Source of the DNA: Oscillospiraceae bacterium | GTDB lineage: Bacteria; Bacillota; Clostridia; Oscillospirales; Oscillospiraceae | NCBI GenBank assembly: GCA_017395085.1 | Contig: JAFPWF010000017.1 | Span: forward strand, 1 to 64,000 | Length of the DNA: 64,000 nucleotides | Reading direction: 5' to 3' | Shown here: positions 1 to 49,026 of the stretch, piece by piece | Layout: every line of letters starts with the position of its first letter | Position numbering within the stretch: position 1 is the first letter of the stretch | Position numbers and translations under genes: made by a program | The notes under the pieces: generated by a model | Databases searched by the model: none | What the model was told of the DNA's origin: nothing | The model's input: only the letters and a program-made list of their open reading frames with translations

Positions 1-712
1 GAAAAAGCTCTACGCCGAGGAGCTCGCCGTCATCATCCCCATCCCCGAGGCCGTGCTCGACGACTCGAACTACGACATCTGGGGCGAGGTGAAGCCCCGC
101 ATCGTCGAGGCCATGGGCCGCCGCATCGACGACGCCGTGCTATTCGGCAACGGCGCGCCGAGTACCTGGCGCGACAGCATTGTCGACACCGCCGTGAACG
201 CCGGCTGCAGCGTCACCCTCGGCACCGATCTCTTCCAGGACATCATGGGGGAGAACGGCCTCATTGCCAAGGCAGAGGAGAGCGGGTACCTGCCCACCGG
301 CATCATGAGCGCCGTCACCATGCGGGCGAAGCTCCGCGGTCTCACGGACCAGAACGGCCAGCCCATCTTCCTGTCGAACATGCAGGACGGTGCGAGGTAT
401 ACCCTTGACGGCATCCCCATGGACTTCCCGATGAACGGGGCCTGGGACGCGGACAGCTGCCTGATGATCGCGGGCGACTTCAGCCAGCTGGTATATTCCA
501 TCCGGCAGGATGTGACCTACAAGGTCCTGACCGAGGCCACCATCGTGGACCCCACCAGCCGCGAGGTTGTTTACTCCCTCGCCCAGCAGGACATGGTCGC
601 CCTGCGCGCGGTCATGCGCCTGGGCTGGGAGATCCCGAACCCCGTCAGCGCCTACCGCGCGAACCTCACGGACTACAGCCCCTTTGCGGTGCTGCTGCCC
701 GAGGAACCCTGA
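1..712 (+). CDS. phage major capsid protein, HK97-like (5' end lies upstream of the window)
   Basis: The open frame continues from position 2 (KKLYAEELAVIIPIPEAVLDDSNYD...). Length, composition and C-terminal motifs resemble HK97-fold capsid proteins. Tail, holin and lysin genes follow. Confidence 0.55.
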   Translation, partial: KKLYAEELAVIIPIPEAVLDDSNYDIWGEVKPRIVEAMGRRIDDAVLFGNGAPSTWRDSIVDTAVNAGCSVTLGTDLFQDIMGENGLIAKAEESGYLPTGIMSAVTMRAKLRGLTDQNGQPIFLSNMQDGARYTLDGIPMDFPMNGAWDADSCLMIAGDFSQLVYSIRQDVTYKVLTEATIVDPTSREVVYSLAQQDMVALRAVMRLGWEIPNPVSAYRANLTDYSPFAVLLPEEP

Positions 713-2588: not shown

Positions 2589-3113
2589 ATGCCTGATTGC
2601 ACTTTCAATACCATTTCCGGCCGTACCATCGCCCGCGAGCAGGTCGTTGCCTATCTCAACACCGGCACGACTTCCAACCCCATCTGGGATCCGCTCGGCC
2701 GCCGCGTCCAGGACAGCTCCACCGAACTGGACTGGGAGAGCGACACCGTGCGCGACATCCTCGGCAACACCTACGGCATTATGAAGAAGCCGAAGATCAC
2801 CCAGACCTTCGACCCGTGGGACCTTGACGGCGGCGACGACGCCCAGCTGAAGGTCTGGAACCTCGCCGTGAACCGGCAGGATCCGCAGGCCCTCTCTGCG
2901 CAGGACATGCTGATTGTCCATTTCTATGCCGGGGACGTCTCCGCGCCCTTTGCCGAGCGCTACGCCTCCTGCATGGTCGAGGTCACGGGCCTCGGGGGCG
3001 AGGGCGGCGGCAACATCGGCATGCCGATCACCGTCACCTTCGGCGGAACCCGCACCCTCGGCACCGCCACGAAGGATGCCACCACCGGGGCGATTACCTT
3101 CACGCCGCAGTGA
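2589..3113 (+). CDS. phage major tail protein-like
   Basis: 174 aa with a Gly/Thr-rich C-terminus. It sits upstream of a chaperone-like gene and the tape-measure gene. Confidence 0.45.
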   Translation: MPDCTFNTISGRTIAREQVVAYLNTGTTSNPIWDPLGRRVQDSSTELDWESDTVRDILGNTYGIMKKPKITQTFDPWDLDGGDDAQLKVWNLAVNRQDPQALSAQDMLIVHFYAGDVSAPFAERYASCMVEVTGLGGEGGGNIGMPITVTFGGTRTLGTATKDATTGAITFTPQ

Positions 3114-3125
3114 GGAGCGTGACGC

Positions 3126-3542
3126 ATGAAAAACCTATCTTTCTCCGACGGCCTTGAGGAGTACTCCCTCAACGACCGCGTCACCGTCCGCTTCAACCCC
3201 ACCGACGCAAGCTTCCTCGAGCGGCTTGCCGAGCTCTTTTCCCGGCTCGACGCCCTGCAGGAGGAGGTCGCAGCCCTGCAGGAAACCACGCCGGAAGAGA
3301 AGGTCTTCCCGTTGGCCAGGTCCCTGGACGCCCGCATGCGGGACCTGCTGGACGGCTTCTTCGGCCAGCCGGTGTGCGAACAGCTCTTCGATTCCATGAA
3401 CCTCTTTGCCTCGGCGGGGGGACTCCCCGTGTGGGCAAACCTGCTCCTTGCCCTCACCGAGGAGGTCGAGTCCGCCATGCAGGGAGAGCTTTCAGCCCGC
3501 GAGGCCCGCATCGCAAAGTACACGGAGAAGTATAAAAAATAG
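3126..3542 (+). CDS. tail assembly chaperone-like protein
   Basis: 138-aa acidic, helical protein placed between the major tail and tape-measure genes. Confidence 0.4.
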   Translation: MKNLSFSDGLEEYSLNDRVTVRFNPTDASFLERLAELFSRLDALQEEVAALQETTPEEKVFPLARSLDARMRDLLDGFFGQPVCEQLFDSMNLFASAGGLPVWANLLLALTEEVESAMQGELSAREARIAKYTEKYKK

Positions 3543-3565
3543 CAGAGGAGGAAAGTTCTCCTCTG
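3530..3565 (-). terminator. intrinsic terminator (hairpin gcagaggag/ctcctctgc plus a U-run on the - strand)
   Basis: Perfect 9-bp stem followed, on the reverse strand, by TATTTTTTATA. It ends the antisense two-gene cassette. Confidence 0.45.
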
Positions 3566-3585
3566 CGGACGTAACGCTTTTCCTG

Positions 3586-3996
3586 TCAGCCTGTGTAGGC
3601 GTCCTCTGCCGTGTTTGTGAAATTTTGCCTCGCCAGCCACTCCCGCTCCTCTTCGTTTTCGGGGATGTCGATGCGCTCGATTTTGAAAATGACCGGCCTT
3701 GTGCCGTCATTGCAGCAGGCGATCATCATCCGGTCGTCGTTGGTCCAGCCCTGCATGATGGATCCGCCCTGAAGAGCCGTGTATACATATCTGCTGACGG
3801 CATCCCAGGCTTCCCCGCAGAACTTTCCATTCATCAGATGATAGAAATCATCCTGCGTCGGAGTACGCTTCAGCAGGAAGGTGTCGCCCGGCTTGAAGAA
3901 CGGGCAGGGGCCGGATTTCGGATCGGCCAGGTATTTCTCCTGCAGATCCGGAAAACACTTTGTCTCCAGTACGGTTATCCTGCATTCATGTTTCAT
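3586..3996 (-). CDS. hypothetical protein co-transcribed with the radical SAM gene
   Basis: 136-aa ORF. Its ATG overlaps the upstream stop (ATGA coupling) and it has a good coding pattern. Confidence 0.45.
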   Translation of the reverse strand: MKHECRITVLETKCFPDLQEKYLADPKSGPCPFFKPGDTFLLKRTPTQDDFYHLMNGKFCGEAWDAVSRYVYTALQGGSIMQGWTNDDRMMIACCNDGTRPVIFKIERIDIPENEEEREWLARQNFTNTAEDAYTG

Positions 3997-4877
3997 GTTT
4001 CTTTTCCCCTCTTCGCTGACTTAGTGATCTCCTCATGATAGAAGTAATTGCACACCACAGGCGGCTCACCGAAGTGCGCACGATGCTGGTCGTCGTCGCG
4101 GATATACAGCATGCCTTCCTTTGCTGTGTACTCCCTGATCTTCTGATCCAGATCCGTCCAGTAGGCGCGGCTTTTCTTCGTGTAGATCTCACGGTACAGC
4201 TCGTCCAATTCCGGATGATGCTTGTGAATCCAATCGAGGATGCGCTTCCTGTAGTCCCCGCGCAGGTTCAGGTTCTCCAGCCATACGAGGTTGCACTGAC
4301 CCTTTGCCCGCTCGATGATCTCGATCGGGTCCGTGATGCCGGGGAAGATCGGCGAGATGAAGCATGTGGACTGGATACCCGCTTCATAGAACTGACGCAT
4401 GGCCTCCAGCCTCCGCTCAATGCTGACCGCCCGGTCCATCTCTTTTCGGAAGCCCTCGTCCAGCGTGTTGATGGACCAGGATACGTGGGCGCTGGGAAAC
4501 TGCCTGATCAGGTCGAGATCCCGCAGGATCAGGTCGGACTTCGTGGAGATGCTGATGCTGATCCCGGTGTCCAGCAACTGTTCCAGCAGGGCGCGGGTTC
4601 GGCCGTACTTTGCCTCCAGCGGCTGATAGGGGTCGGTGACCGAGCAGAAAAAAGCTTCCTTCCCGGCATACTTCCCAGGCTTATGGATCTCCGGCCAGAC
4701 CTTGACATCCACGAACTCTCCCCAGGGCTCCGGGTGGTTGGTAAAGCGCTTCATGAACGATGCGTAGCAGTATTTGCAGGCATGTGTGCAGCCCACATAG
4801 GGATTGACAGCGTAATCCGACACCGGCAGATTCGTCTTTGTCATGATATCCTTGACTTCGATTTCTTTGATAACCAT
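3993..4877 (-). CDS. radical SAM protein, spore-photoproduct-lyase/'DNA repair photolyase' (COG1533-like) family
   Basis: N-terminal NPYVGCTHACKYCYA contains the CxxxCxxC radical-SAM cluster motif in the context typical of SplB-like enzymes. Length 294 aa. Confidence 0.65.
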   Translation of the reverse strand: MVIKEIEVKDIMTKTNLPVSDYAVNPYVGCTHACKYCYASFMKRFTNHPEPWGEFVDVKVWPEIHKPGKYAGKEAFFCSVTDPYQPLEAKYGRTRALLEQLLDTGISISISTKSDLILRDLDLIRQFPSAHVSWSINTLDEGFRKEMDRAVSIERRLEAMRQFYEAGIQSTCFISPIFPGITDPIEIIERAKGQCNLVWLENLNLRGDYRKRILDWIHKHHPELDELYREIYTKKSRAYWTDLDQKIREYTAKEGMLYIRDDDQHRAHFGEPPVVCNYFYHEEITKSAKRGKET

Positions 4878-4892
4878 CTATGCACCTCCGCA

Positions 4893-4925
4893 AATACCGA
4901 TTTGTCAGCGTGATTATACCATCTG
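4893..4925 (-). promoter_or_regulatory. putative promoter of the antisense radical-SAM cassette (extended -10 TGGTATAAT)
   Basis: The reverse complement reads ttcaat-N15-tggtataat, followed by a GGAGG RBS and the ATG. Confidence 0.3.
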
Positions 4926-4950
4926 CTCCGCATATTGAAAAGAAAGAATC

Positions 4951-5484
4951 ATGTTTTCTCTACCAACCACCGTCACCGTCTCCGGCACCGAATACCCCGT
5001 CCGCACGGACTTCCGGGTGATCCTGGAGATCTTTGTGATGCTCTCCGATCCCTCCCTCTCCGATGCCGACAAGACCGAGGCCCTGCTGAGGATGTTCTAT
5101 GAGGAGCGCCCCGCGGATATCCCCACGGCCCTGCAGGCCTTCCGGAGTTTTGTAGATCCCGGCTCCCCGTCGCAGAAGTCCTCCGGCCCGTCTCTCGTGA
5201 ACTGGGCCCATGACTTCCCGCTGCTGGTCGGGCCGGTCAACCACGTGCTGGGCGCCGAGTGCCGCAGCATGCCGTACCTGCACTGGCACACCTTCCTCGC
5301 GGCATACATGGAAATCTCGCCGGACAGCGTCTTCTCTCAGACGCTCCGCATCCGCGAAAAGCTCCGATCCGGCAAAAAACTCGAGAAGTGGGAGAGGGAG
5401 TTTTTCAGGCGCAACCCCGATCTGGTCAACCCGCCCGTTAAACTGACCGACGCCGAGAAGGAAATCCTCAAAGACTGGGCATAA
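4951..5484 (+). CDS. phage Gp15-like tail-module protein
   Basis: 177-aa ORF positioned immediately upstream of the tape-measure gene, resembling Gp15-family proteins of Firmicutes siphophages. Confidence 0.4.
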   Translation: MFSLPTTVTVSGTEYPVRTDFRVILEIFVMLSDPSLSDADKTEALLRMFYEERPADIPTALQAFRSFVDPGSPSQKSSGPSLVNWAHDFPLLVGPVNHVLGAECRSMPYLHWHTFLAAYMEISPDSVFSQTLRIREKLRSGKKLEKWEREFFRRNPDLVNPPVKLTDAEKEILKDWA

Positions 5485-5516
5485 AAAAACAGAGCAGCAC
5501 TCACTGCTCTGCTTGG
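5484..5516 (-). terminator. intrinsic terminator (cagagcag/ctgctctg hairpin with an A/U run)
   Basis: 8-bp stem. The reverse complement gives the hairpin followed by TTTTTTT. Confidence 0.45.
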
Positions 5517-5695
5517 ATTGGTTCAGAATCTCTAATAGGATGAAAATACTTGTAAAACTCAAATTCATCTGTAATCCAAATCTGTTTCCCATCTTGATAA
5601 ATTACCCAACCATCGAGACAAGGCGCACATTCGTATAATACGTCAAAAACAATTGGCGAGTTTTCCGGTGGGTTAAAACATCTGAATTTCTTCAT
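5501..5695 (-). CDS. small hypothetical protein (antisense moron in the tail module)
   Basis: 64-aa ORF with its own terminator. Weak support. Confidence 0.3.
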   Translation of the reverse strand: MKKFRCFNPPENSPIVFDVLYECAPCLDGWVIYQDGKQIWITDEFEFYKYFHPIRDSEPIQAEQ

Positions 5696-5759
5696 AATAC
5701 ATCACCTAATTCTTCTTCTAGTTCAGATTATACCATTACATCAATCTGGTGAAAACCCC

Positions 5760-7076
5760 ATGCCATCTATTACTTTTGAAACTGAAGCCGCAAATTACGA
5801 GGCTTCCGCCATCGCCCTCCGCTCGCTGACAAAGGAATACACCAAGCTCAACCGGGTCATCGTGCAGACCGAGAAGCAGCTTTTGAAGTTCGACGAGATC
5901 AACCGCCTCGTCGCTTATGCCGACAAACCCGCCTCAGCCGGCAGGACGTCCTCCGGTCGCAGCAGTTCCTCCAAGTCAGCCTCAAAGACTACCACGCCCA
6001 AGACGACAACCGGCACCGGCTCCGGGGAGAAAAAGCCCTACATGCCCTCCACGCGTGACACTTCCGCCTCGCTGCCGCTGCACCTCGCCATCAAGGACAT
6101 CTTCTTCGAGTGGGGCGACCTCAACTGGGAGGTCATCCTCATGAAGCTGATTGCCGGCGTGAACGCCATCGGCCTCGGGGTGATCGGCCTGGTCGCAGCG
6201 GGGCCCGCAGGCCTTGCCCTCGGCCTCACGGCGGGGCTCCTGTTCAGCATCCTTGCGGACGCCACCATCTTCAACTTTGACGGAAAGGTCCAGCCGGAGG
6301 AACTGCGCAAGGCGCTCTACGCGCTGCTGCCCGTGGCGGGGGCGGGGGTCGGCCTCATCGCCGGCGGGCCCGCCGGTGCGCTCATCGGGCTTGCGGTCGG
6401 CACCTTCCTGAGCCTGAAGCTCATCGGGCTCGACTGGAGCGAAGCCGAGCGGCAGCTTACGCAGTTCTTCACCGACCTGCACGACTTCTTCGACCTGCGC
6501 TTTCAGAGCGTCAGCAGGTTCTTCCATGAGAGCATCGACGGCCTCAAAACCTGGTGGTCAAACCTCAGCTTCCGGGGCTTCCACCTCAGCCTGCCGCACC
6601 TGCATGTACAGTGGGAGATGTTGAACGCCAATTCCGCGCTGGCCCGCTTCCTCGGCATCAGCGCCGTGCCGCACCTCAGCGTGCAGTGGTACGCGAGAGG
6701 CGGCATCGTGAACGGCGCCACCCTCATCGGCGCGGGGGAACAGGGGAAGGAGGCCGTCATCCCGCTGGAAAGGCATACCGAGTGGATCCGCCTGGTGGCG
6801 AGCGAGCTCCGCGCGCAGCTGGAGGCCCTCGGCCCCTCGCACACCTGGGCGCTCTATCCTCTGCCGGCGGCCGCAACCGGTTCCCTCATTCCGCCTTCCG
6901 CCCTGCAAAGCGAAAGCCGCCCATCTCTGGACGGCCTTGCCGATGCGATTGTCAGCGCAATCTCCACGCTGCAGGCGGTTTCTCCCGAGCCCGTGATCCG
7001 CGTCTACCTCGACGGAAAGCAGCTCTCCGACGCGGTCACCAGGTACCAGCGCCGGGACGCGAGAGCATCAGGCTGA
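5760..7076 (+). CDS. tail tape-measure-like protein
   Basis: N-terminal coiled coil, a Ser/Thr/Lys-rich linker, and a Gly-rich hydrophobic segment (GLGVIGLVAAGPAGLALGLTAGLL) typical of tape-measure proteins. At 438 aa it is short for that family. Confidence 0.5.
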   Translation: MPSITFETEAANYEASAIALRSLTKEYTKLNRVIVQTEKQLLKFDEINRLVAYADKPASAGRTSSGRSSSSKSASKTTTPKTTTGTGSGEKKPYMPSTRDTSASLPLHLAIKDIFFEWGDLNWEVILMKLIAGVNAIGLGVIGLVAAGPAGLALGLTAGLLFSILADATIFNFDGKVQPEELRKALYALLPVAGAGVGLIAGGPAGALIGLAVGTFLSLKLIGLDWSEAERQLTQFFTDLHDFFDLRFQSVSRFFHESIDGLKTWWSNLSFRGFHLSLPHLHVQWEMLNANSALARFLGISAVPHLSVQWYARGGIVNGATLIGAGEQGKEAVIPLERHTEWIRLVASELRAQLEALGPSHTWALYPLPAAATGSLIPPSALQSESRPSLDGLADAIVSAISTLQAVSPEPVIRVYLDGKQLSDAVTRYQRRDARASG

Positions 7077-7337
7077 TCGTCTGCCGAAGTATCCCGGGTT
7101 CACTTCTCCGTAAGTGCTGTGGATGTCTTTCAGCTCAAACAGCAGGTACGGGTCGCTTGCAAAATAGCTTCCAAGTCTGCAGCCTTGCATCGTGACGGAT
7201 CCGTCCCTGTCGACGGTAAAGATACGCAGCGTGTTTTCCGTTCTGCCGTCCTGATTCGTCAGGATGTATTCCTCCCGGTCTACCAGATAGTATAGCACTC
7301 TGGTGCTGGGCTTCAGTTTATAGTCAAGTTCTTTCAT
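7068..7337 (-). CDS. small hypothetical protein (antisense)
   Basis: 89-aa ORF between tail genes. It overlaps the tape-measure gene end by 9 nt. Confidence 0.25.
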   Translation of the reverse strand: MKELDYKLKPSTRVLYYLVDREEYILTNQDGRTENTLRIFTVDRDGSVTMQGCRLGSYFASDPYLLFELKDIHSTYGEVNPGYFGRRSA

Positions 7338-7793: not shown

Positions 7794-9458
7794 ATGATTT
7801 CTACTTCTGCCCTTTATAACCAGATCCTCTCCGGCCCGCACGCCAAAGAGGTCAAAATCAACATCGCCGGGGCCGATTACGGCATGGACGTGCTGACGTC
7901 CCTGCGCACTTCGCTCGCGCCCTTTGGGAGCGGCTCGCCAACGATCGGCCTCGCTCCTGCGGCGGAGATCACGGCCTCGCTGTACCTGGCCTCGTCCAAT
8001 GTGCCACGCATGGCGGCCTTAAGGCCTTATGTGCGGCTGGTCAACGACACCCAGCAGTCCGAATGGCTGCCGCAGGGCCTGTTCTATGTTGACACCCGGC
8101 AGCAGGATGAATCGGGACTCCTGACCCTGCACGGCTACGACGGCATGCTGAAGGCCGAGCGCCCCGCGCCGTATTCCACCCTGCAGTGGCCCGCGCTGGA
8201 CATGGATGTGGTCGCCGAGATCTGCAGCATCCTCGGCTTTTCCGTGGACGCGAGGACCACGGCGATTATGACTTCCGGGTTCCGTATTAATCTTCCGTCT
8301 CAGTACACCATGCGGGAGACGCTGAAGTATATTGCGGCGCTCTACGGCGGCAGCTTTGTCCTCACGGCCTCCAACACGCTGCGCCTGCTGCCTCTGTGGC
8401 AGCGGGGGAGTTCTGCCAATCACGACCTGACGGCCTCCGTGCAGTCCGTCTCCGTCAGCCCGGCCTTCCCGGCCTGCACGGGCATCCGCTTCCTGACGGA
8501 GGACAATGCGGAGTTCTTTGCCGGCAGCGAGACGGGCTACGTATATGAGATCGCTTCGCCCTTTGCCACGCAGGCCGCGGCCAATGCGCTCTTAAACCGC
8601 ATGCAGGGCTTTGTCTACCGGCCGTATTCCGCGGAGGGTGCAATCCTCAACCCGGCCGCCGAGCCGGGGGATACGGTGCTGATCCCCTCCGGCAATACCA
8701 CTGCGCTCTCGTCCCTCTTCACCCTCTCCCGCAGCTTCGACTCGCTCTTCCCGGCGGATTGCTCCGCCCCGGAGGACGAGGAGCTCGACCACGAGTACCC
8801 GTATGAGTCGACTGCGGACAGGGTATACGAGAGGAAACTGCAGAATATGCAGTCGGAGCTCAACGTCCAGGCGCAGGCCATCTCCGCCAAGGTCAGCCGC
8901 ACGGGCGGGGATTCCCGCAGCTTCGGCTGGTACCTGGACGCCGACCGCTTCTCTCTCTACTCCGACACGGTTGAAGTGATGCATGTGGATGATGAGGGGC
9001 TCACAGTCCGGGGTACGATCACAGCCGACGCCGGCTGTATCGGCGGCTGCGACATCGAAAACGGCACCCTGAAGATCGCGAACGCCAACATCGAGAACCT
9101 GAACGCCTCCAAGATCACCGCGGGAACCCTGAACGTGGACCGCATCGGCACCGGCTCGATCACCGGCGGGAAGATCGCCGACGAGACCATCGAGTCATAT
9201 AACCTGGACGACGGCTCCGTGGTGAACCGGGTACTGGGCTCGAGCTCCGTTTCCTACGGCAAGACGAGCTTCCAGACCACGCTGGACCAGGTGGGTACCA
9301 ACAAGGCGAACATCGACGTGCTGTACGGTTACTTCACGGGCTACGCGCACTTCAGCCAGCTGGAGATCGACAACGGCTTCTACTACGGGGGCAAAACAAT
9401 AGGCATCGCCACCGCAACCATCAGCGGAAGAACTCTACAATATTTGGGGTGGGTATAA
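7794..9458 (+). CDS. phage tail protein (tail tip/minor structural protein)
   Basis: 554-aa ORF following the tape-measure gene. Size and position are typical of a distal tail/tail-associated protein. Confidence 0.5.
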   Translation: MISTSALYNQILSGPHAKEVKINIAGADYGMDVLTSLRTSLAPFGSGSPTIGLAPAAEITASLYLASSNVPRMAALRPYVRLVNDTQQSEWLPQGLFYVDTRQQDESGLLTLHGYDGMLKAERPAPYSTLQWPALDMDVVAEICSILGFSVDARTTAIMTSGFRINLPSQYTMRETLKYIAALYGGSFVLTASNTLRLLPLWQRGSSANHDLTASVQSVSVSPAFPACTGIRFLTEDNAEFFAGSETGYVYEIASPFATQAAANALLNRMQGFVYRPYSAEGAILNPAAEPGDTVLIPSGNTTALSSLFTLSRSFDSLFPADCSAPEDEELDHEYPYESTADRVYERKLQNMQSELNVQAQAISAKVSRTGGDSRSFGWYLDADRFSLYSDTVEVMHVDDEGLTVRGTITADAGCIGGCDIENGTLKIANANIENLNASKITAGTLNVDRIGTGSITGGKIADETIESYNLDDGSVVNRVLGSSSVSYGKTSFQTTLDQVGTNKANIDVLYGYFTGYAHFSQLEIDNGFYYGGKTIGIATATISGRTLQYLGWV

Positions 9459-9721
9459 TTATGCTTCAATTAAAAACCGCGCAGGGTTTCACCCTGCCTA
9501 TTACATGGATCGGAGTCAGCGACTTTGACGGATCCCTCCGCTTCGAGACCCCGGAGACGGACCTTGCGACCCTGTTCTCTGTCTTCAGCGATCCTTCGCA
9601 CACATCCGCCCTGACCCGCATCTTCGATGAAGACGAAAAGACCTTCTCCGGCTTTACCGCCTTCAAAGGCATAGAAAAAATGGCCGGAGGCGCCATTGTA
9701 ATCCGTCTTCTTCCTGGTTAA
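9449..9721 (+). CDS. hypothetical phage protein
   Basis: 90-aa ORF overlapping the previous stop (ATGA-type coupling). Confidence 0.4.
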   Translation: MGIIMLQLKTAQGFTLPITWIGVSDFDGSLRFETPETDLATLFSVFSDPSHTSALTRIFDEDEKTFSGFTAFKGIEKMAGGAIVIRLLPG

Positions 9722-9845
9722 TCGAATAAGAGCCCAGTGTAACGGGTCTTATTCGAAAAAGGACGAGCAGCGTAGCGACTGAGCTTTCCTGACGCTTCAG
9801 GGAAGCGAATGGATACGAAGCTTGTGAGGACGCGGGAACGGGAAC
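9721..9845 (+). repeat. intergenic structured element, copy 4
   Basis: Same family (gagcccagtgtaacgggtctt...gagctttcctgacgcttcagggaagcgaatggatacgaagcttgtgaggacg). Confidence 0.6.
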
Positions 9846-9890
9846 TACGGTGATCCGGCTGATGCCCGCATAATCTTTTTGGAGGACAAA

Positions 9891-10352
9891 ATGAAAGAAT
9901 TCTGGACGATGATTCAAACCGCGTTTTTCGGCCTGGGCGCATGGCTCGGCTATTTCCTCGGCGGCTGCGACGGCCTGCTCTATGCCTTGGTGATCTTTGT
10001 CGCCGTCGACTACGTCACCGGCGTGATGTGCGCCGTGGCGGACAAGAAGCTCAGCTCCGCGGTGGGCTTCAAAGGCATCTGCCGCAAGGTGCTCATCTTC
10101 CTGCTGGTCGGACTTGCGCATATTCTGGATACGCAGATCCTGCATGAAACCGGCATTCTCCGCACCGCCGTCATCTTTTTCTTCCTGTCCAACGACGGGC
10201 TGAGCATCCTGGAGAACGCCGCGCACCTAGGCCTACCCATCCCGCAGGCGCTGAAGGATGTGCTGGAGCAGCTGCACAACCGAGCGGAGAAATCCGGTGA
10301 GCCGGAAACGGTTATTGCTGATTATGTAGGAGAACACGAATCCCATGAGTGA
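9891..10352 (+). CDS. phage holin (holin_4-like family)
   Basis: Small protein with transmembrane segments (FFGLGAWLGYFLGG..., LIFLLVGLAHIL). It overlaps the downstream lysin gene. Confidence 0.65.
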   Translation: MKEFWTMIQTAFFGLGAWLGYFLGGCDGLLYALVIFVAVDYVTGVMCAVADKKLSSAVGFKGICRKVLIFLLVGLAHILDTQILHETGILRTAVIFFFLSNDGLSILENAAHLGLPIPQALKDVLEQLHNRAEKSGEPETVIADYVGEHESHE

Positions 10353-11154
10353 AGCAGCCCAAAAGGTTATTGCCATCGCATTGGACGAGGTCGGCTACCG
10401 GGAGAAGGCTTCCAACGCTGCTCTCGACGATCCGCTGGCCAACGCCGGCAGCGGCAACTGGACCAAGTACGCGAGGGATCTTGCAGCCGCCGGCTACTAC
10501 AATGGTGACAAGAGCGCGTGTCCTTGGTGCGAAATTTTTACAGACTGGTGCTTCTGGAAGGCTTTCGGTCCGGACGGTCAGCGCATCCAGTGCCAGACCG
10601 GCGACCTGGGTGCTGCCTGCATCTACTCCATGCAGTATTACCGGCAGCAGGGGAGATGCGATCAGAATCCCAAAGAGGGGGATCAGGTCTTCTTTTATGG
10701 CGGCGGCACCGTCGGCCACACCGGCATCGTGGTTGAGGTATCCGAAAGCAGTATCACCGTGGTCGAGGGCAACAGCTCCGACCGGGTGCAGAAGCTGAGC
10801 TACCCCCGCAGCAGTTCCGTCATTGCCGGATACGGGCACCCTTGGTACAAAGAGAACGTTCCGGCAGAAGAAGAAATTGAGACGCTATCGGCTCCCATAG
10901 AGCAAACCTGTTCTGTTCTTCTTCCTCTCCTCAAACGCGGTGCCACCGGCACCGCCGTCGAGTCCGCCCAGGTCCTCCTGATCCACCGCGGCTATTACTG
11001 TGGAGGTCGTAAGAACCTCCTCGGCCGCGAGACGCCAGACGGCGACTTCGGCCCCGCAACCGAAAAAGCCGTCAGGGACTTCCAGACCCTGAAAAGTCTG
11101 GAGCCTGACGGCAAAATCGGGGCAGATAGCTGGACAGCGCTGATAACTGAATAG
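10345..11154 (+). CDS. endolysin: CHAP-domain peptidase with a C-terminal peptidoglycan-binding domain
   Basis: N-terminal Cys/His CHAP signature (CPWCEIF...VGHTGIVVEV). C-terminal PG_binding_1-like repeat (LKRGATGTAVESAQVLL...DGDFGPATEKAVRDFQ). Confidence 0.75.
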   Translation: MSEAAQKVIAIALDEVGYREKASNAALDDPLANAGSGNWTKYARDLAAAGYYNGDKSACPWCEIFTDWCFWKAFGPDGQRIQCQTGDLGAACIYSMQYYRQQGRCDQNPKEGDQVFFYGGGTVGHTGIVVEVSESSITVVEGNSSDRVQKLSYPRSSSVIAGYGHPWYKENVPAEEEIETLSAPIEQTCSVLLPLLKRGATGTAVESAQVLLIHRGYYCGGRKNLLGRETPDGDFGPATEKAVRDFQTLKSLEPDGKIGADSWTALITE

Positions 11155-11516: not shown

Positions 11517-11708
11517 ATGGCTGAATCAAAGTTTCAGATCACACCGAAAAAATACATTGGAGAATCGTCAGTGGTTTCCCTGCGCATGCCGAAGGACATG
11601 CTGCGGGACATTGATGAGATTGCGGCAAAAACAGGGCGTACGAGGAACGAGTTTATGCTGATGAGCTTGGAATTTGCCTTGGATCATCTTGAGATTGAAG
11701 AGAAATAA
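11517..11708 (+). CDS. ribbon-helix-helix (CopG/Arc-like) DNA-binding protein
   Basis: 63 aa. A beta-strand-like stretch followed by two helices (SLRMPKDMLRDIDEIAAKTGRTRNEFMLMSLEFAL). Confidence 0.45.
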   Translation: MAESKFQITPKKYIGESSVVSLRMPKDMLRDIDEIAAKTGRTRNEFMLMSLEFALDHLEIEEK

Positions 11709-11726
11709 CACGGGGAGTTGAGTATC

Positions 11727-14429
11727 ATGCCCATCATCAAATGCAAAATGTGCGGCGGCGATATAGACCTCGCTGCGGATAAGACTTTTGGAACCTGCGA
11801 ATACTGCGGCTCCACCATGACGCTGCCAAAGGTGTCGGACGAACAGAAGGCGGCCGCATTCAACCGCGGCAACCACTTCCGGAGGATCGGCGAGTTTGAC
11901 AAAGCTCTTGCCGTCTATGAGCGCATCGTCGCGGAGGACGACACCGATGCGGAGGCGCACTGGTGCTGCGCCCTCTGCCGCTTCGGCATCGAGTATGTGG
12001 AGGATCCCGCCACCTATGAATGGATGCCGACCTGCCACCGTGCAAGCTTCGACAGCTTCCTGGAGGATGTGGACTACCTTGCCGCGATAGAGAATTCAGA
12101 CGGTATAACGCGCCGTCAGTACCAGAAGGATGCCGCGAAGATTGCAGAGGTGCAGCGCGGCATTCTGGCGACCTCCCAGAACACGGAGCCGTATGACGTA
12201 TTTATCAGCTACAAGGAACTGGATGAAAACGGCAGCCGTACCCGCGACAGTATTTTGGCGCAGGAAATCTACTACCGGCTGACGGAAAAGGGCTGGCGGG
12301 TGTTCTTCTCACGCATATCCCTGGAGGACGTGCCCGGCACGCAGTATGAGCCGTACATCTTTGCTGCTCTGAATAGTGCAAAGGTGATGATTGTTGTTGG
12401 AACCAGCGCAGAAAATCTCAATGCGGTGTGGGTCAAGAACGAGTGGAGCCGCTTCCTATCCATGATGCGCAAGGATCGCTCGAAACTCCTGATTCCCTGC
12501 TACCGCGACATGGATCCTTATGATCTTCCGGAGCAGCTCGCGGTGCTGATGAGCTATGACATGGGGAAGATCGGTTTTGTGCAGGATCTGATCCGCGGCG
12601 TGGATAAAGTGTTGACCGCGGAGAAGAAGGAGCCGGTTAAAGAGACGGTGAAAGAAACCGTTGTCGTCCAGCAGCCCGGCGGCGGGCCGAATGTTACGGC
12701 GCTTCTCAAACGCGGCCAGCAGGCGCTTGAGGACAGCGAATGGGACAAGGCCAGAGAATACTATGATCAGGTTCTCAACATGGATGCTGAGAACGCAGAG
12801 GCGTTCCTCGGTCTGTTCCTGGCAGGCGAAAAGTGTGAAGAAGAGAACGCTTATATAGAGAGGGCCTGCACGAAGAAAGGCGCGACAGAGACCCTGAATG
12901 TTCCGTCCGCGGCTGACCGCATCAATGAGAATGCTGCAAAGTACAAGCTCGACCATTACCTATTCGATGGCGACATTCGAAAACTGTTCGATTATGATTT
13001 ACAATATCCAACCACACTCCGGACGCAAAAGCTTGTCGCAGAGCAGGAAAAAGCAAGCTTTCAGAATGATAGGAATCTCAACCGGGCATTTCGCTATGCA
13101 AAGGGCGATGTGGCAGCGAGACTGAACGCATTCAAAACGCAGTTGTTTGCCGGGTTGGACCGTAACGTCACACAAGCAGAGGAACAGGAAGAAGCAGCTA
13201 GAGAAGAGAAGAAAGCTGCATACGAGGTGTTCCTGGACAATGCGGAAAATCTTGCACAGGAGAAAAACGAGCAGGCACAGGCGAGGAAAGAAGAAGATTA
13301 TCAGGCACTTTGCCGCCGTATTTCAGAAGCGAAAACGATAAAAGAATTTGACGTTGCAAAATATAAGCTTTTCCCCTACTTCAATGACTATAAGGACAGT
13401 GCGGAGCAGTACAAGCGCATAGAAGAAGGAATTGCAAGGTTGGAAAAAGAGGCTGCAGAAGAAGCGGAAGCGGAACGCCTGCGCAAGGAAGTCGAAGCAA
13501 AAGCCGTCGCGGAAGAAGCTGAGCGTCAGGAGGAGCAGAAGCGTATTGCAGCAGAAAAGGCAGATAAGAAACGTAAAAAAACGATCGCAACTAACACGCT
13601 GATCATTGTTGCCTGCATTGTGTTTGTAACCGTGTTGAAGTTCGTGATCATTCCTAACCAGAGACTCAATAAATCAGTGGCAATGATTGATGCTGGCGAT
13701 TACAAGGCGGCATACCTTCTTCTAGATGGTATGGATTATAAAAATAGCAAGGAGCTTCAGGAAAGCATAAAATTGCAATACGAAAAAGAATGCATTTCTG
13801 AAGCGCAGGTCCGTTCATATGTTCCTTTTGGTTCTTATGAACAGGATAACGATTCCGAAAACGGGAAAGAAGACATAGAGTGGCTTGTGCTAGCAAAGAA
13901 AGATGATAGAATCCTAGTCATTAGCAGATATGCTCTAGACTGCCAGCGATTCAACACTTCAGCGACAAGTGTTACATGGGAAACCTGTTCAGTGCGTAAA
14001 TGGCTAAATGAAACATTTCTGAACAACGCTTTTTCCGAGGAAGAGCGTGCCATGATTCCCAATATGATTGTCACTGCGGACAATAACCCTGACTACAGCA
14101 TAAGTCCAGGAAAAAGCACGACGGATCAGATGTTCCTGTTTAGCATTAGAGAAGCGAATAACTATTTCAATACAAATAATGCACGGCAGTGTCAGGGAAC
14201 TCCTTACTGCTTTGCACAGGGGGCCTATAAAGACAACAGTGGTAATTGTTGGTGGTGGTTGCGGACCCCTGGATTTGATACCGAACACGCTGCGATCGTT
14301 CGTAGTGACGGCTCCATCTATTCCACCTCGGATATTAACGGGGATGGCTCTTTATATTCCAGCGGTTATGGAGTCACTCTCAAAGATGTAGCCGTCCGTC
14401 CTGCGATGTGGATAGATTTGACGACATAA
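11727..14429 (+). CDS. membrane-anchored TIR-domain protein with an N-terminal zinc ribbon + TPR module and a C-terminal extracytoplasmic domain
   Basis: CKMCGG..CEYCGS zinc ribbon. TIR motifs (YDVFISYKELD..., WVKNEWSRF with conserved Glu). Long coiled coil. Transmembrane helix (TLIIVACIVFVTVLKFVII). DUF6273-like C-terminus. Confidence 0.7.
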   Translation: MPIIKCKMCGGDIDLAADKTFGTCEYCGSTMTLPKVSDEQKAAAFNRGNHFRRIGEFDKALAVYERIVAEDDTDAEAHWCCALCRFGIEYVEDPATYEWMPTCHRASFDSFLEDVDYLAAIENSDGITRRQYQKDAAKIAEVQRGILATSQNTEPYDVFISYKELDENGSRTRDSILAQEIYYRLTEKGWRVFFSRISLEDVPGTQYEPYIFAALNSAKVMIVVGTSAENLNAVWVKNEWSRFLSMMRKDRSKLLIPCYRDMDPYDLPEQLAVLMSYDMGKIGFVQDLIRGVDKVLTAEKKEPVKETVKETVVVQQPGGGPNVTALLKRGQQALEDSEWDKAREYYDQVLNMDAENAEAFLGLFLAGEKCEEENAYIERACTKKGATETLNVPSAADRINENAAKYKLDHYLFDGDIRKLFDYDLQYPTTLRTQKLVAEQEKASFQNDRNLNRAFRYAKGDVAARLNAFKTQLFAGLDRNVTQAEEQEEAAREEKKAAYEVFLDNAENLAQEKNEQAQARKEEDYQALCRRISEAKTIKEFDVAKYKLFPYFNDYKDSAEQYKRIEEGIARLEKEAAEEAEAERLRKEVEAKAVAEEAERQEEQKRIAAEKADKKRKKTIATNTLIIVACIVFVTVLKFVIIPNQRLNKSVAMIDAGDYKAAYLLLDGMDYKNSKELQESIKLQYEKECISEAQVRSYVPFGSYEQDNDSENGKEDIEWLVLAKKDDRILVISRYALDCQRFNTSATSVTWETCSVRKWLNETFLNNAFSEEERAMIPNMIVTADNNPDYSISPGKSTTDQMFLFSIREANNYFNTNNARQCQGTPYCFAQGAYKDNSGNCWWWLRTPGFDTEHAAIVRSDGSIYSTSDINGDGSLYSSGYGVTLKDVAVRPAMWIDLTT

Positions 14430-14772
14430 TGTTCCAGTTTTCTGACTTCTGAACGAAATTGTTATGTAGGATAAGGTGTTCCTTCTGAGTCAACTTGAGG
14501 CAGAGAAATACTTTTCTTCTGACTATGAACGAAGGTGCGAGCCGACTAAATACGCTGAAGAGATGGGCTGTAGGACTCTTGTGTGGTAGAGCGACTGGTG
14601 GCTGCGAATACGAGGTATCGACTCGGTGTGGATTATATGGTCCACGTATGACGGCGAAGTAGGTGTTGCAGGAGCGATAGCCAATGCTGAAGGGGCTGTG
14701 GTGAGACCGATTTTATTGGTAGATTTTGAATCTTGATTCTTACAGGAATGGGAAAGAAAAGGAGTGCGTGCC

Positions 14773-15693
14773 ATGGATACTATGGCGTTGTCATCAGTTG
14801 AATTAAGAAAATACAATCCAAGTACTCCAGATGAATTTTACAAATTGGCCGCTAGGACAGCAAGCTTCTATTATCACACACGATTAGAGACGGCTATAAA
14901 GATTCTTTCTGGGGAAGAAATAGTGTTTTTTATCAGCCCGATAAGCAACATGAATGATGAAAACGAAATAATTCTTCACGAAAGAGAACAAAATTGCACC
15001 TATATACTTTGCTTTTCGCATATACAAACTGAAAGCATTCCCATGTGGTATTTGTATAGTGGGATAACAGGAGAGGGATCACGAATAGGATTCACGCCAG
15101 CAAGAATGAGAGATATTCTTGAAAGCGCTATTGAAGTATACCCTGTCTATCGGAGGCAGATAGATACTTCCAAATCGTTACACATCGACGATGACTACGC
15201 TGTTGAGTATGGTTGGGTATTCTATCGCAATAAAGAGGACAATTCTATCAAGTATAAAGGAGACAAGTGTATTATACGTGACTCAATGCATTCATTTGAA
15301 AAAGGCAATTTTTTTGTCAAAGACAGTGAATGGAGTTATGAAAAAGAATTTCGTATCGTATTTAAACTAAATCGCACCTTACCAGAGCAAATAGCACTCG
15401 TGCTAAATAAAAAGAAGATGATGGCAGATGATGGATTGAAAGTGACACTATCGCCAAGGATTAGTGAGGCAGATATGGAAATGATAAAAGCCAAAATGGG
15501 TTTACCGGCTAAGCACATTTCAACAAGTAAGATAAAAGCCAAAATGGATTTGCTTAGCCGAAATCGGCAGAGTATAGTGGAGCATTTTCCGGAGGTCGTT
15601 TCTGGACTAAATATGGATGAACTAGAGTCAATCATCAAGCAAGTTGAAGCCGAACTCATTGTGCAGAAAGAAAAGGAGTTAGCCCATGTCTAA
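14773..15693 (+). CDS. DUF2971-like hypothetical protein
   Basis: Low-GC gene. The SPISNMNDENE segment resembles the DUF2971 'FNDPxE' motif. Confidence 0.35.
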   Translation: MDTMALSSVELRKYNPSTPDEFYKLAARTASFYYHTRLETAIKILSGEEIVFFISPISNMNDENEIILHEREQNCTYILCFSHIQTESIPMWYLYSGITGEGSRIGFTPARMRDILESAIEVYPVYRRQIDTSKSLHIDDDYAVEYGWVFYRNKEDNSIKYKGDKCIIRDSMHSFEKGNFFVKDSEWSYEKEFRIVFKLNRTLPEQIALVLNKKKMMADDGLKVTLSPRISEADMEMIKAKMGLPAKHISTSKIKAKMDLLSRNRQSIVEHFPEVVSGLNMDELESIIKQVEAELIVQKEKELAHV

Positions 15694-17521
15694 ATTTGTA
15701 ATCGAATGTCCCAATTGTGGGAAATATGCGGAAGCGCGAACCGGCTTTTTCGCCCGCAAGAAGCTCGACTGTTCCTGCGGTTACACCATCAATGTCCGCA
15801 CAGATAAGCTTACTGGTCGGGAGTGTCCGCACTGTGGCAACATGGTCGTTTTCGACCAAAGTGAAGGTGAAAGGGCAAAATGTCCCGTTTGCGGTGAGCC
15901 GATCAACACCATGACCGAGCAGGACAAGATGGCAGAGTTTTCCTGCGCCCAGTGCGGCGTGCGCCTGCGCACGAATAAGAGCGCGGAGAAGTACGTCTGC
16001 CCGGTCTGCGACTTTGAGAATTTCATTCCCGAGCGGCTCATGAGCGAGCAGATCAAGAAGGACGGTCTCGCCAGCATCATCAAGTACGAGGGCGATAACG
16101 ACACCCTGGTCTGGAAGCATCCCATCGAGGACTTCAACTACGGCTCGCAGCTCATCGTCCATGAGAGCCAGGAGGCGATCTTCTTCCGGGACGGCCAGGC
16201 GCTTGATCTTTTCGGACCGGGCCGCTACACGCTGGAGACGCAGCAGCTCCCGCTCCTGGAGAAGGTTTATAAGCTTCCCACCGACACCGAGGGCACCTTC
16301 CACAGCGAAGTATACTTTATCAACAAGGCCGTGCAGATGGCCATCAAGTGGGGCACGCCCGAAAAGGTGCGCTTCATCGATCCGCTGACCGGCGTTCCGC
16401 TGGAACTCGGCGCGTCCGGGGAACTGAACCTGATGGTCTCCGACTCCCGCAGGCTGCTCCTGAAGCTGGTCGGAACCATGAAGGGCATTGCCTGGGGCGA
16501 CAGTGAGGGTTTCACCAAGTCCGTACAGGCCTCTTTTCGCCCCCTGATCACCACGGCGGTCAAGGCAAACCTCTCCAGCGTCATCAAGGACAACGCCATC
16601 GACCTGTTGGAAGTGGACGAGAAGCTGGAGATGATCTCCGAACACTTGCGTGAGAAACTGCTTCCCGGCTTTGAGGAATACGGTCTTACGATCCCGCAGT
16701 TTTATGTGACGAGCATCGTCCTGCCAGAGAACGATCCCAACTTCAAGCGCATCCGCGAACTGCACACCATCACCCTGCAGGCGAGAGCGTACCAGGCAGA
16801 AGCGACCGTCCTGACGGCGAAGGCGCAGAGCGAGGCGCAGTACCGCACGGCACAGGAGCAGAGCAAGGCAGCCATCGAGGCTGCCCGCCGCGGCGCCGTG
16901 CTGGAGCAGCAGACGACCGAGACCGAGATTGCCCGCCGTGAAGCGGAGCGGAGGGTTATTGCCGCCCAGGCGGATGCACAGGCGCAGCGCATGGCCGGTC
17001 TGACCGAAGCGGAAATCATGGCCGCCAAGGGTTACAGCCAGAAGGATGTACTGCAGGCCGAAGTGCAGAAAGCCTATGCCGAAGGCATCGGCAACATGGG
17101 ACCGGCCATCTCCGGCGGCGGCGGAAGCGGTATCCTTGGGGATATGCTCGGCCTCGGGGTCGGCATGGCTGCGGCAAGCACTGTCGCGCCGCAGATCGGA
17201 GAGATGATGCAGGGCTTTCGGGCTCCCGGGGCAGCAGCACCTGTTGCCGCGTCAGGCGGCTGGGACTGCCCGGGCTGCGGTACCAGGAATATCCAGAGCC
17301 GCTTCTGTCCGGAATGCGGCGCAAAGAAACCGTCGCCTGCGGCAGCACCCGCAACGGACTTTTGGGATTGCCCCTCCTGTGGAACTAAGGGCATCACGAG
17401 TAAGTTTTGCCCCGAGTGCGGTGCCAGAAGGCCTTCTCTGACCTGGACCTGCCCGGACTGCGGCACTGCGGATATCAGGAGCAAATTCTGCCCCAACTGC
17501 GGCAGAAAAAAGGATGAATAA
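15686..17521 (+). CDS. SPFH/band-7 (flotillin-like) protein with N-terminal zinc ribbons, a coiled coil and three C-terminal zinc-ribbon repeats
   Basis: Multiple CxxC pairs at the N-terminus. SPFH-like core. Ala/Gln-rich coiled coil. Three repeats of W(D/T)CPxCGT..I.S(R/K)FCPECGA at the C-terminus. Confidence 0.6.
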   Translation: MSKFVIECPNCGKYAEARTGFFARKKLDCSCGYTINVRTDKLTGRECPHCGNMVVFDQSEGERAKCPVCGEPINTMTEQDKMAEFSCAQCGVRLRTNKSAEKYVCPVCDFENFIPERLMSEQIKKDGLASIIKYEGDNDTLVWKHPIEDFNYGSQLIVHESQEAIFFRDGQALDLFGPGRYTLETQQLPLLEKVYKLPTDTEGTFHSEVYFINKAVQMAIKWGTPEKVRFIDPLTGVPLELGASGELNLMVSDSRRLLLKLVGTMKGIAWGDSEGFTKSVQASFRPLITTAVKANLSSVIKDNAIDLLEVDEKLEMISEHLREKLLPGFEEYGLTIPQFYVTSIVLPENDPNFKRIRELHTITLQARAYQAEATVLTAKAQSEAQYRTAQEQSKAAIEAARRGAVLEQQTTETEIARREAERRVIAAQADAQAQRMAGLTEAEIMAAKGYSQKDVLQAEVQKAYAEGIGNMGPAISGGGGSGILGDMLGLGVGMAAASTVAPQIGEMMQGFRAPGAAAPVAASGGWDCPGCGTRNIQSRFCPECGAKKPSPAAAPATDFWDCPSCGTKGITSKFCPECGARRPSLTWTCPDCGTADIRSKFCPNCGRKKDE

Positions 17522-47037: not shown

Positions 47038-49026
47038 CTATTCCTTCCGGTACGTCCGGCAGGTGTAACCGTCGGCGCGCAGCTTCAGCCCGGGCAGCCA
47101 GTCCGGCGTCTGCCCCATCAGCCGACAGATTTCCTCCACGTCGTCCGATTCGATGATCACTTCGTCATGCACATGCCCGACGACCGGGTACCGCCACAGG
47201 CGTTTCATGGCATCCGCCAGCAGGTCGCGGCTGATGGCCTGGACAATGTTTTCCGTCAGCTTCGGCCCGTAGGTTTCGATGCGGCTCCAGTGCCTGGCGG
47301 CGTCGAGACCGTCATAGGTGATGACCTCGCTGCCGTAACGGCCTTCCTCGATTTTGGCTCTCAGATAGCAGAGCTCCCGTCCGGAGGGAATGGCAACCCG
47401 CAGCATCTGATTCTTATACTCAAAGCTAAGCGGTCCGGCCACGGCAGTCATCCTCTCGGTGACGGCCTGTTTTGCGGCGCGGTCCACGTCCCACCAGAAT
47501 TTCACGATCCTGGGGTTTGCCTCCCGCCAGGAACTGACCAGTTCGTCCAGTTCCTCTTCCGGCGCGCCCATCTCGAGAGCGCCCATGCTTTTCAGCGCCC
47601 CGGTGCTGCCGCCGTAACCCAGCGCCAGTTCGGCGATCTTGCCTTTCTGGCGGAGCTCTCCGTTGATGCCGTGCTTTACCACGGGTACGCCAAACATTTT
47701 GCTGGCGCTTGCGGCGTATATGTCTCCGCCCTCATCGAATACCCGTTCCCTCCAGCGTTCACCGGCAAGGTGCGCGAGCACTCTGGCTTCAATGGCGCTG
47801 AAATCCGCCACTGTGAATTTCTTCCCACTGCTGGGAATGAATGCGGTTCTCACCAGTTCGGAGAGTACGGCAGGTACTTCGCCGTAGAGGAGCGCTACGG
47901 TTTCCTCATCGCCGGCCTTTACCAGCGCCCTCGCCACATCCAGATCCGGGAGTTTGTTCTGCGGCAGGTTTTGCAGCTGGACCATCCGCCCGGCCCAGCG
48001 GCCGCTTCTGCTTGCTCCGTAGAATTGGAACATGCCGCGGCATCTGCCGTCGCTGCAGACGCAGTTCAGCATCGCCTCGTATTTCCGTACGCTGCTTTTG
48101 GCTGCCTGCAGCCGCAGCGAGAGGACTTCCTGTATCAGAGGGTCTGTGCTTTCTTTCATCAGGGCTTTGGCTTCCTTCCTGCCGAGGCTGTCCGCTTTCA
48201 GTCCGCGGCCCTGCAGCCACTCTTTCAGTTGAAGGACTGAGTTCGGGTTTTCCAGCCCCGTCAGGTCCCTCATGCATCTCGTGAGTTTCGCCCTGGCGCC
48301 GGCGTCCATCTTCACGGCCTGCTGCACGAAGTCCGTGTCGATCCGGATGCCCCGGTCGTTAATTTCCTGATCGAGGGCATATTCCTCCCAGACCCGGTCG
48401 GGAACGGGGAAGTTCTTCAGCTTTTCCTGTATCTGCAGTTCCGCATCCACGTCCCGCCTGTTGTAGGCAAGGAAGCGCTCCCATTCCAGCGGCGCATCCG
48501 CCGGACGCGTAAAACGCCGTTCCGCAAACAGCGTCTGCTGGCTGTCATTGCCTTCAGCCTCCTTCGTCATGGTCGGTACGCAGAACTTCCGGATCAGCTC
48601 TTTCCCTTCGCTCAGTTTCTGCTTTTCCAGCCCGAGCACGGCGCCGGTCATTGCCAGCCCCGGGGGCAGCCCGTTGTAGGCGCTCAGCACCATGCTGCAT
48701 CGCCAACCGGCGGGGTCGAGGAAGGGGAGACCGTGGTAGCCCGGTACCAGTTCCGGTTTGATTCTGTTCAGCCAGCGGCTCAGGCAGACGCGCTCGAAGC
48801 CTGCGTTGTAAGCCCATTTCAGCACGCGTCCGTCATTCAGCGCTTCCAGGATCTCTTCCGGCGGCAGCTGTCCGCCGGCCACGTCGTATACAAGCGGCTC
48901 CGCGCCGTCCACGCTGACGCCGAAGAGCAGGATGTCGAAATCCGGGTCTTCTGCGTAGCGGTACACGCCGCATTTGGAGATGTCCGCCCCGCTGCGGGTT
49001 TCCAGGTCAATGCTCAGGGTTTTCAT
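47038..49026 (-). CDS. family-A DNA polymerase with an N-terminal 3'-5' exonuclease domain (phage type)
   Basis: Exo I motif LSIDLETRS. Pol A palm motifs (e.g. [28 protein letters not shown]). Confidence 0.7.

Follow-up and report, generated by a model that had tools for sequence, protein, structure and literature searches.

What is a gene for a radical S-adenosylmethionine (SAM) enzyme doing on the opposite strand of a prophage tail module, and does it encode a spore photoproduct (SP) lyase (SPL)? The question arises from a 64,000-nucleotide (nt) stretch of a gut/rumen Oscillospiraceae genome (contig JAFPWF010000017.1 of assembly GCA_017395085.1; hereafter the window), in which two open reading frames (ORFs) form a cassette antisense to the tail genes of a temperate phage. 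The first (3993..4877, − strand) encodes a 294-amino acid (aa) radical SAM protein with the cluster motif CTHACKYC, here called rSAM, and the second (3586..3996, − strand) encodes a 136-aa protein of the TIGR04076 family, here called p136. A sequence-only reading of the locus had described this antisense cassette, correctly, and had taken it for an SP-lyase-like repair enzyme with a coupled small partner, suited to a sporulating host. We find that rSAM, as judged by sequence comparison, is an uncharacterised enzyme whose clade is sister to that of "radical SAM mobile pair protein B", that it shares an SPL-like fold but is not supported as an SPL, and that its pairing with p136 is facultative.

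Family placement of the radical SAM enzyme

rSAM contains the CxxxCxxC motif and matched the Pfam Radical_SAM model (PF04055) at 67.3 bits, against a cut-off of 29.5. Its best match among the NCBIfam models was TIGR04470, radical SAM mobile pair protein B, to which it aligned end to end at 409.2 bits (E 9e-123), 0.8 bits below the cut-off of 410; the PA0069 family model (130 bits, cut-off 360) and the Rv2578c family model (115 bits, cut-off 430) came second and third. The mobile pair to which TIGR04470, TIGR04471 and TIGR04472 refer was named by hidden Markov model (HMM) curators. Proteins of the window type number more than 8000 in the database, with rumen and gut metagenomes as their main source, and the top 120 are at least 77% identical to rSAM. 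Their clade straddles the TIGR04470 cut-off, with scores of 404 to 421 bits (404 in locus L001 and 420.9 in L005), whereas canonical B proteins score 599–606 bits and are 53–58% identical to rSAM.

In viral contigs, a canonical mobile pair comprises a regulator of the MarR type, protein A (TIGR04471; DUF5131-like, 222–229 aa) and a B protein of about 600 bits. The A gene lies directly upstream of canonical B wherever that region is covered (about 30 of 33 loci, L016–L048 and L050). A MarR-type gene was seen in L022, L026 and L028; the L022 regulator, the only one scored against TIGR04472, reached a sub-threshold 208.5 bits (cut-off 240). No A homologue was found in the window cassette or in the relatives L159–L238, and no TIGR04472 MarR regulator is present in the cassette, where a Gp15 gene on the opposite strand lies upstream of rSAM. 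Because its identity to canonical B is 53–58%, because A and MarR are missing and because the scores of its clade lie astride the cut-off, we place rSAM beside protein B rather than among its canonical members.

A canonical MarR–A–B unit was also observed in an IMG/VR phage contig (L022, 6869–8888), with all three genes on the same strand between tail-fibre-like and holin/endolysin genes. Phages therefore appear to have acquired B-type radical SAM units repeatedly, at differing moron sites.

The two window genes are already present in GenBank under generic names, in an Oscillospiraceae metagenome-assembled genome (MAG), as MBQ3756384.1 ("radical SAM protein") and MBQ3756383.1 ("TIGR04076 family protein"), and the nearest family has a name, so that nothing about them is categorically new. 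What is new is a B-like enzyme that lacks A and MarR, is coupled to a TIGR04076 gene and lies antisense in a tail module. The cassette is not a known defence system: in PADLOC, rSAM reached only 17 bits against PDC-M41B and PDC-M30B, through the cluster motif, and p136 had no match.

Relation to spore photoproduct lyase

The comparison with SplB that the earlier reading had proposed gave one answer by profile and another by structure. The SPL models TIGR04070 and TIGR03886 matched rSAM at 15.8 and 16.6 bits (residues 12–47 only), against cut-offs of 400 and 437.55, and searches of PDB sequences (phmmer, and hmmsearch with a profile) returned no SPL chain. By contrast, SPL was the closest solved structure in a whole-chain Foldseek comparison, with a template-modelling (TM) score of 0.55 over about 320 columns, all others scoring 0.41 or less, and hhalign gave a local match between rSAM and SPL (E 0.0012). 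In a MAFFT alignment with the SPLs of Bacillus subtilis (the sequence being validated by a 571-bit match to 4FHC) and Geobacillus thermodenitrificans, rSAM was collinear with SPL from about residue 62 of the latter to the C-terminus. The motifs CxxxCxYCY, TK, S-IN, R-x-x-A..AG and PI(F/Y) are common to both. C30, C34, Y36, C37 and Y38 are invariant in 29 sequences, and Tyr36 and Tyr38 correspond to SPL Tyr97 and Tyr99. An SPL-like fold is supported, in keeping with the previous assignment of rSAM to the COG1533-type, SplB-like superfamily.

The hydrogen-donor cysteine of SPL (Cys141 in B. subtilis, Cys140 in G. thermodenitrificans) has no apparent counterpart. Its position aligns with Val80 of rSAM in MAFFT, or with Ser79 by motif offset, and the only cysteine nearby, Cys78, is replaced by Ser or Gly in close relatives. 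The cluster motif starts at residue 30, compared with residue 91 in SPL, and the N-terminal ~60 residues of SPL are absent. Of the SPL residues whose loss the sequence-only reading had named as telling against it, the tyrosines are conserved and the cysteine is missing, and it is on the cysteine that the SP-lyase assignment is refuted. The annotation "phage SP lyase" is contradicted by the HMM scores, the absent Cys141 equivalent and the missing N-terminal region. Nor does the host lend it support. The Oscillospiraceae family includes spore formers, but the nearest families that bear a name are found in bacteria that do not sporulate, namely in Bacteroides-type elements (canonical B), Pseudomonas (PA0069) and Mycobacterium (Rv2578c), which leaves the argument from a sporulating host without foundation.

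The partner protein and its pairing with rSAM

p136 matched TIGR04076 over residues 2–110 at 111.9 bits (cut-off 33) and is a member of that family; no Pfam or PDB sequence match was found. C31, C60 and C94–C95 (in ACCNDGxRPV) are conserved among diverse TIGR04076 members, and p136 is a four-cysteine (Cys4) protein that probably binds a metal or an Fe–S cluster. A 26-residue C-terminal tail ending in AYTG is specific to its subfamily. Copies with at least 83% aa identity (83–93%; loci L079–L158, centred on p136, with the gene at about 10001–10408 in most) come from the genomes of at least 592 species in at least seven phyla, the spread covering Bacillota, Bacteroidota, Planctomycetota, Pseudomonadota, Actinomycetota, Lentisphaerota and Desulfovibrio. 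Within the subfamily, synonymous divergence (dS) is saturated (1.1 to >4) and the ratio of nonsynonymous to synonymous divergence (dN/dS) is 0.01–0.03, which argues for extreme purifying selection and not just recent transfer; the idea of a recent horizontal transfer of p136 across phyla is weakened by the saturated dS. Conservation of this strength across at least seven phyla is noteworthy in its own right. The subfamily is nearly always a solitary gene. A role of p136 as a dedicated electron donor for radical SAM enzymes was considered and found to be unsupported by the neighbourhoods of either generic TIGR04076 genes or p136 itself.

In the window, the start codon of p136 and the stop codon of rSAM overlap in ATGA, which bears out the coupling described earlier; the implied partnership holds less well. 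p136 lies immediately downstream of rSAM in 5 of 70 rSAM-centred metagenome loci with room downstream, follows a 369-bp spacer in one and persists as a remnant in another, while rSAM lies upstream of p136 in 2 of 69 p136-centred genome loci. An obligate pair is rejected on these counts, and the pairing is facultative. All paired rSAMs nevertheless fall in a single subclade of a neighbour-joining tree (at least 85% identity to the window protein), with solitary ones interspersed, indicating that the pair is an inherited unit; the tree placement suggests that it probably arose once and was lost repeatedly.

p136 was also seen close to canonical mobile-pair genes. In L099 (10001–12941) it faces a canonical mobile pair (regulator, A and B) in convergent orientation across a 63-bp gap, and in L100 a window-type rSAM–p136 pair (9121–10411) shares a contig with a canonical A gene (1782–2468) about 7 kb away. 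The two loci hint at a weak affinity of p136 for B-type enzymes.

There is a substantial chance, somewhat short of even, that the two genes are functionally unrelated: two independent accessory genes, brought side by side in a single lineage and then captured jointly, with adjacency as their sole link. p136 is absent from 61 of the 70 rSAM loci with room for it and rSAM from 67 of the 69 p136 loci, generic TIGR04076 genes are solitary, and the window p136 is 93% identical to solitary copies in other taxa, compared with 84–88% to other paired copies. Independence is harder to reconcile with a junction of 0–5 nt that has been kept in at least nine loci across an rSAM dS of 0.5–0.9, and with the proximity of p136 to canonical genes in L099 and L100. 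Moreover, in about 4 of the 69 p136 loci a B-type rSAM is found no more than 10 kb away, a frequency above chance by estimate, not by computation.

Architecture and insertion of the cassette

rSAM is preceded by GGAGG 7 nt 5′ of its ATG. About 30 nt upstream of its start lies a sigma-70-type promoter-like site with an extended −10 element (TTTTCA-17-TGGTATAAT; 4941..4913, − strand), TGGTATAAT being the reverse complement of 4913–4921 and the scan pattern being TTTTCA-17-TGnTATAAT. At the other end, an intrinsic-terminator-like hairpin (3566..3542, − strand; a 9-bp stem with 6 GC pairs, then the TATTTTTTAT T-run) lies within the 43-nt gap that separates the p136 gene from the convergent 138-aa gene. 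The scans thus recovered both the promoter and the terminator of the earlier description. An Rfam scan of 3000–6000 detected no RNA element. The numbers of homologues (more than 8000 for rSAM and 2976 for p136 in a database search) and the dN/dS values (0.04–0.10 and 0.01–0.08, respectively) indicate that both ORFs are real genes and not chance frames, and both are under strong purifying selection.

The cassette is flanked on the left by a gene for a 138-aa tail-module protein (3126..3542, + strand; phrog_11299), for which the name "tail-chaperone-like" derives from position only, and on the right by a Phage_Gp15 gene (4951..5484, + strand; PF06854). In eight IMG/VR phages with tail proteins of 45–56% aa identity (L007–L014), the homologue of the 138-aa gene abuts or overlaps the Gp15 homologue with nothing between them, indicating that the cassette is an insertion into an otherwise contiguous tail block, as had been supposed. 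With an empty junction in related phages, a promoter and terminator of its own and a deviating GC content (0.52–0.59, compared with 0.62–0.66 in the flanks), the cassette is an intact moron lying antisense within the tail block, and its expression is predicted. This prophage recurs, its rSAM and Gp15 proteins unchanged, on 18–20 contigs from at least seven metagenome assemblies. The cassette is intact in these contigs, which disposes of the possibility, raised at the outset, that it is pseudogenised.

Searches of phage collections gave no second carrier of the pair. A single-protein scan of IMG/VR with rSAM had no match, an alignment-based scan returned canonical A–B pairs and distant radical SAM proteins only, the p136 scan returned relatives of 50–53% only, and INPHARED held no close relative. 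On these results, no phage other than this prophage seems to carry the exact pair. In blastn comparisons, nucleotide homology with other loci ended at the boundaries of the coding sequences (3580–4877), and no common flanks, repeats or attC-like ends that would mark a mobile element were found.

Three chromosomal relatives (L159, L160 and L100) share a ACTGGTAnTATAAT element about 110 nt upstream of the rSAM start, together with a leader of about 85 nt that contains a GCCGC-TTGC-GCGGC hairpin. This leader may be regulatory. The window cassette retains TGGTATAAT only, compared with ACTGGTAnTATAAT plus leader in these close relatives.

Substrate and function

We tentatively favour, at something less than an even chance, the view that the cassette is a moron expressed during lysogeny, that its radical SAM enzyme is directed at DNA but is not SPL, and that the TIGR04076 protein is a Cys4 metal-binding companion, though an optional one. 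The cassette would have entered a temperate, siphovirus-like Oscillospiraceae prophage from the pool of accessory genes on the chromosomes of gut and rumen Clostridia. A sigma-70-type promoter and a terminator of its own, on the strand opposite the late genes, make expression in the lysogen probable, and the cassette would there provide a function of benefit to the host. The enzyme would act without the DUF5131-type A and MarR partners. Its CxxxCxxC-bound [4Fe-4S] cluster would reductively cleave SAM to a 5′-deoxyadenosyl radical, which would abstract a hydrogen atom from the substrate, with Tyr36 and Tyr38 available for a radical relay; since an SPL-type hydrogen-donor cysteine is lacking, the chemistry is unlikely to be that of SPL. 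p136, although translationally coupled here, would normally act alone and would be at most an optional helper.

The most probable substrate is a damaged or modified DNA base, given the SPL-like whole-chain fold and the links of neighbouring families to the SOS response and DNA metabolism. COG1533 "splB" homologues of the PA0069 and Rv2578c types are LexA-regulated in many phyla (PMC4951493, PMC8565304), and SplB-like radical SAM genes share operons with SOS-linked ImuB-C domain genes in some genomes and are reported to be associated with DUF4130 (PMC3765255). Phage M6 gp53, the one further SPL-like enzyme to have been studied, is a radical SAM isomerase whose substrate is a modified thymidine within DNA (PMC8989533); tblastn with rSAM reached the "DNA repair photolyase" gene of M6-like phages at a distance (23.6% identity, E 2e-6). 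To our knowledge, SPL and the M6 gp53 isomerase are the only radical SAM enzymes shown so far to act on DNA.

Several results weigh against a DNA-directed enzyme with a helper protein. A scan for the Firmicute LexA (Cheo) box found none at the window promoter and none upstream of relatives (0 of 81 regions). A MarR-type regulator precedes the canonical pair, and regulators of this type usually sense small molecules. A literature search found no experimental paper on TIGR04470/TIGR04471, TIGR04076 or PA0069. Generic TIGR04076 genes occur alone in unrelated contexts, with no radical SAM neighbours, and the rSAM–p136 pairing is itself rare. Finally, the genes found around rSAM and p136 are of many kinds, and redox and detoxification functions feature among them more than repair does. 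Near p136 (n=116), FMN_red and Flavodoxin_2 occur five times each (possibly overlapping), nitroreductases five times, GNAT four times and MatE three times, with no dominant partner; near rSAM (n=112) the genes are varied, DUF5131 (5) and DUF4130 (3) being the most recurrent, and include flavodoxins, GNAT and methyltransferases.

Much of this evidence would also fit the main rival explanation, in which the substrate is not DNA but a small molecule, xenobiotic, cofactor, RNA or protein, rSAM belongs to a floating pool of redox and detoxification genes of gut anaerobes, and p136 is a redox or metal partner. The regulator ahead of the canonical pair, the flavodoxin-, nitroreductase-, GNAT-, MatE- and methyltransferase-type neighbours, the absent LexA boxes and the four conserved cysteines of p136 all point that way, as does a TIGR04076 gene near a glycyl-radical activase cluster in Bilophila (PMC8667426). 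We nevertheless consider a non-DNA substrate somewhat less likely than a DNA one, because the whole-chain fold is closest to that of a DNA enzyme, SPL, because PA0069 and Rv2578c, the nearest named families in this argument, belong to SOS regulons, and because the neighbourhoods include DUF4130 and DUF5131 and show enrichment of no single non-DNA pathway.

A bolder form of the DNA-directed reading is doubtful: rSAM would be a branch of the SPL fold that repairs or edits a non-SP DNA lesion or base and is carried by the phage to protect or mark the DNA of the lysogen, and p136 would be a new Cys4 metalloprotein substituting for the DUF5131-type A. If true, this substitution would amount to a second, alternative two-component version of the mobile pair.

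It is most improbable that rSAM is a genuine SplB orthologue repairing 5-thyminyl-5,6-dihydrothymine in the germinating spores of lysogens: the nearest solved structure, the CxxxCxYCY motif with both SPL tyrosines and the Oscillospiraceae host would suit such an enzyme, but not HMM scores of about 16 bits where 400–437 are required, the failure to match any SPL chain by sequence, the lost Cys141 equivalent with a variable Cys78, the missing N-terminal ~60 residues or the sister clades in non-sporulating taxa. That rSAM hypermodifies phage DNA against restriction, as a counterpart of gp53 of Pseudomonas phage M6, an isomerase on modified thymidine, is equally hard to credit, for in spite of the distant match to M6-like phages and the action of the SPL-like gp53 on DNA, no 5-hydroxymethyldeoxyuridine (5-hmdU) kinase, aGPT-Pplase or pyridoxal phosphate (PLP) decarboxylase gene lies nearby, the gene lies antisense among late tail genes rather than with replication genes, and its closest relatives are solitary chromosomal genes.

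The SplB-like superfamily that includes PA0069, Rv2578c and mobile pair B is very large, SOS-linked in many phyla and biochemically blank. A compact, self-contained, phage-borne copy that stays intact across many samples offers a convenient entry to the substrate of this superfamily. Should the cassette turn out to be ordinary accessory cargo, its analysis still clears away "phage SP lyase", an attractive but mistaken annotation.

Other features of the prophage and the window

Upstream of the cassette, the + strand carries a capsid gene (53..712) and a tail-module gene matching phrog_3099 (2589..3113). Downstream on the same strand, the Gp15 gene is followed by a gene for a 438-aa tape-measure-like protein (5760..7076; tape-measure PHROGs), and further phage genes encode a DUF6711 protein, a 554-aa tail protein, a holin and a CHAP endolysin.

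A second antisense mini-cassette (5487–5755) occupies the junction between the Gp15 and tape-measure genes. It consists of a 64-aa ORF (5501..5695, − strand) with a promoter of the form TTTTCA-17-TGnTATAAT (5755..5727), a terminator-like hairpin (5514..5487) and a dip in GC content to 0.40; the ORF had no Pfam, PHROG or PADLOC match. A third antisense ORF, of 89 aa (7068–7337, − strand), lies between the tape-measure and DUF6711 genes in a GC dip of 0.52; it is called as a gene in every copy of the prophage (L239–L249) and has no family match. Together with the rSAM–p136 cassette, the tail module thus carries three antisense insertions.

Directly 3′ of the lysis genes, the region 11517–17521 encodes a ribbon-helix-helix (RHH; CopG) protein, a 903-aa protein with TIR, TPR and DUF6273 domains, a DUF2971 protein and an SPFH/Band-7 protein with zinc ribbons. 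This set of genes resembles cargo for defence or abortive infection at the end of the prophage, but PADLOC gave no match. Farther along the window, a 666-aa protein (47038–49038, − strand) belongs to a 90% cluster labelled "DNA polymerase" in Oscillospiraceae MAGs of GenBank, which suggests that a further mobile or viral element lies there.

Comparison with known systems

rSAM can be set against five known systems. SPL (TIGR04070; PDB 4FHC/4FHD) is the closest in structure, yet it is only about 15% identical in sequence, it has the conserved Cys141 and the first ~60 residues that rSAM is missing, and the rSAM family is not tied to spore formers. PA0069 and Rv2578c belong to the same COG1533 SplB-like superfamily and are SOS-regulon genes according to the literature, but rSAM scores far under their cut-offs, and neither the window gene nor its 81 relatives has a LexA box. 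M6 gp53 and rSAM are both phage-borne, SPL-like radical SAM proteins and distant homologues; gp53 acts on DNA and sits in a multi-gene modification cluster, whereas no such cluster surrounds rSAM. For p136, the relevant system is the TIGR04076 family, with which it shares the family model and the cysteines C31, C60 and C94–C95, its subfamily adding the 26-residue tail; the translational coupling to a radical SAM gene seen in the window is unusual among TIGR04076 genes. The mobile pair comes nearest. Its B protein has the same length and motifs as rSAM, and both are mobile and can occupy prophage moron sites, but B is accompanied by A and MarR and scores about 600 bits, whereas rSAM, at 409 bits, is without both. 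The window-type enzyme is usually encoded alone on a chromosome; in the one subclade to which the phage copy belongs, it is a TIGR04076 gene, downstream, that accompanies it in place of A.

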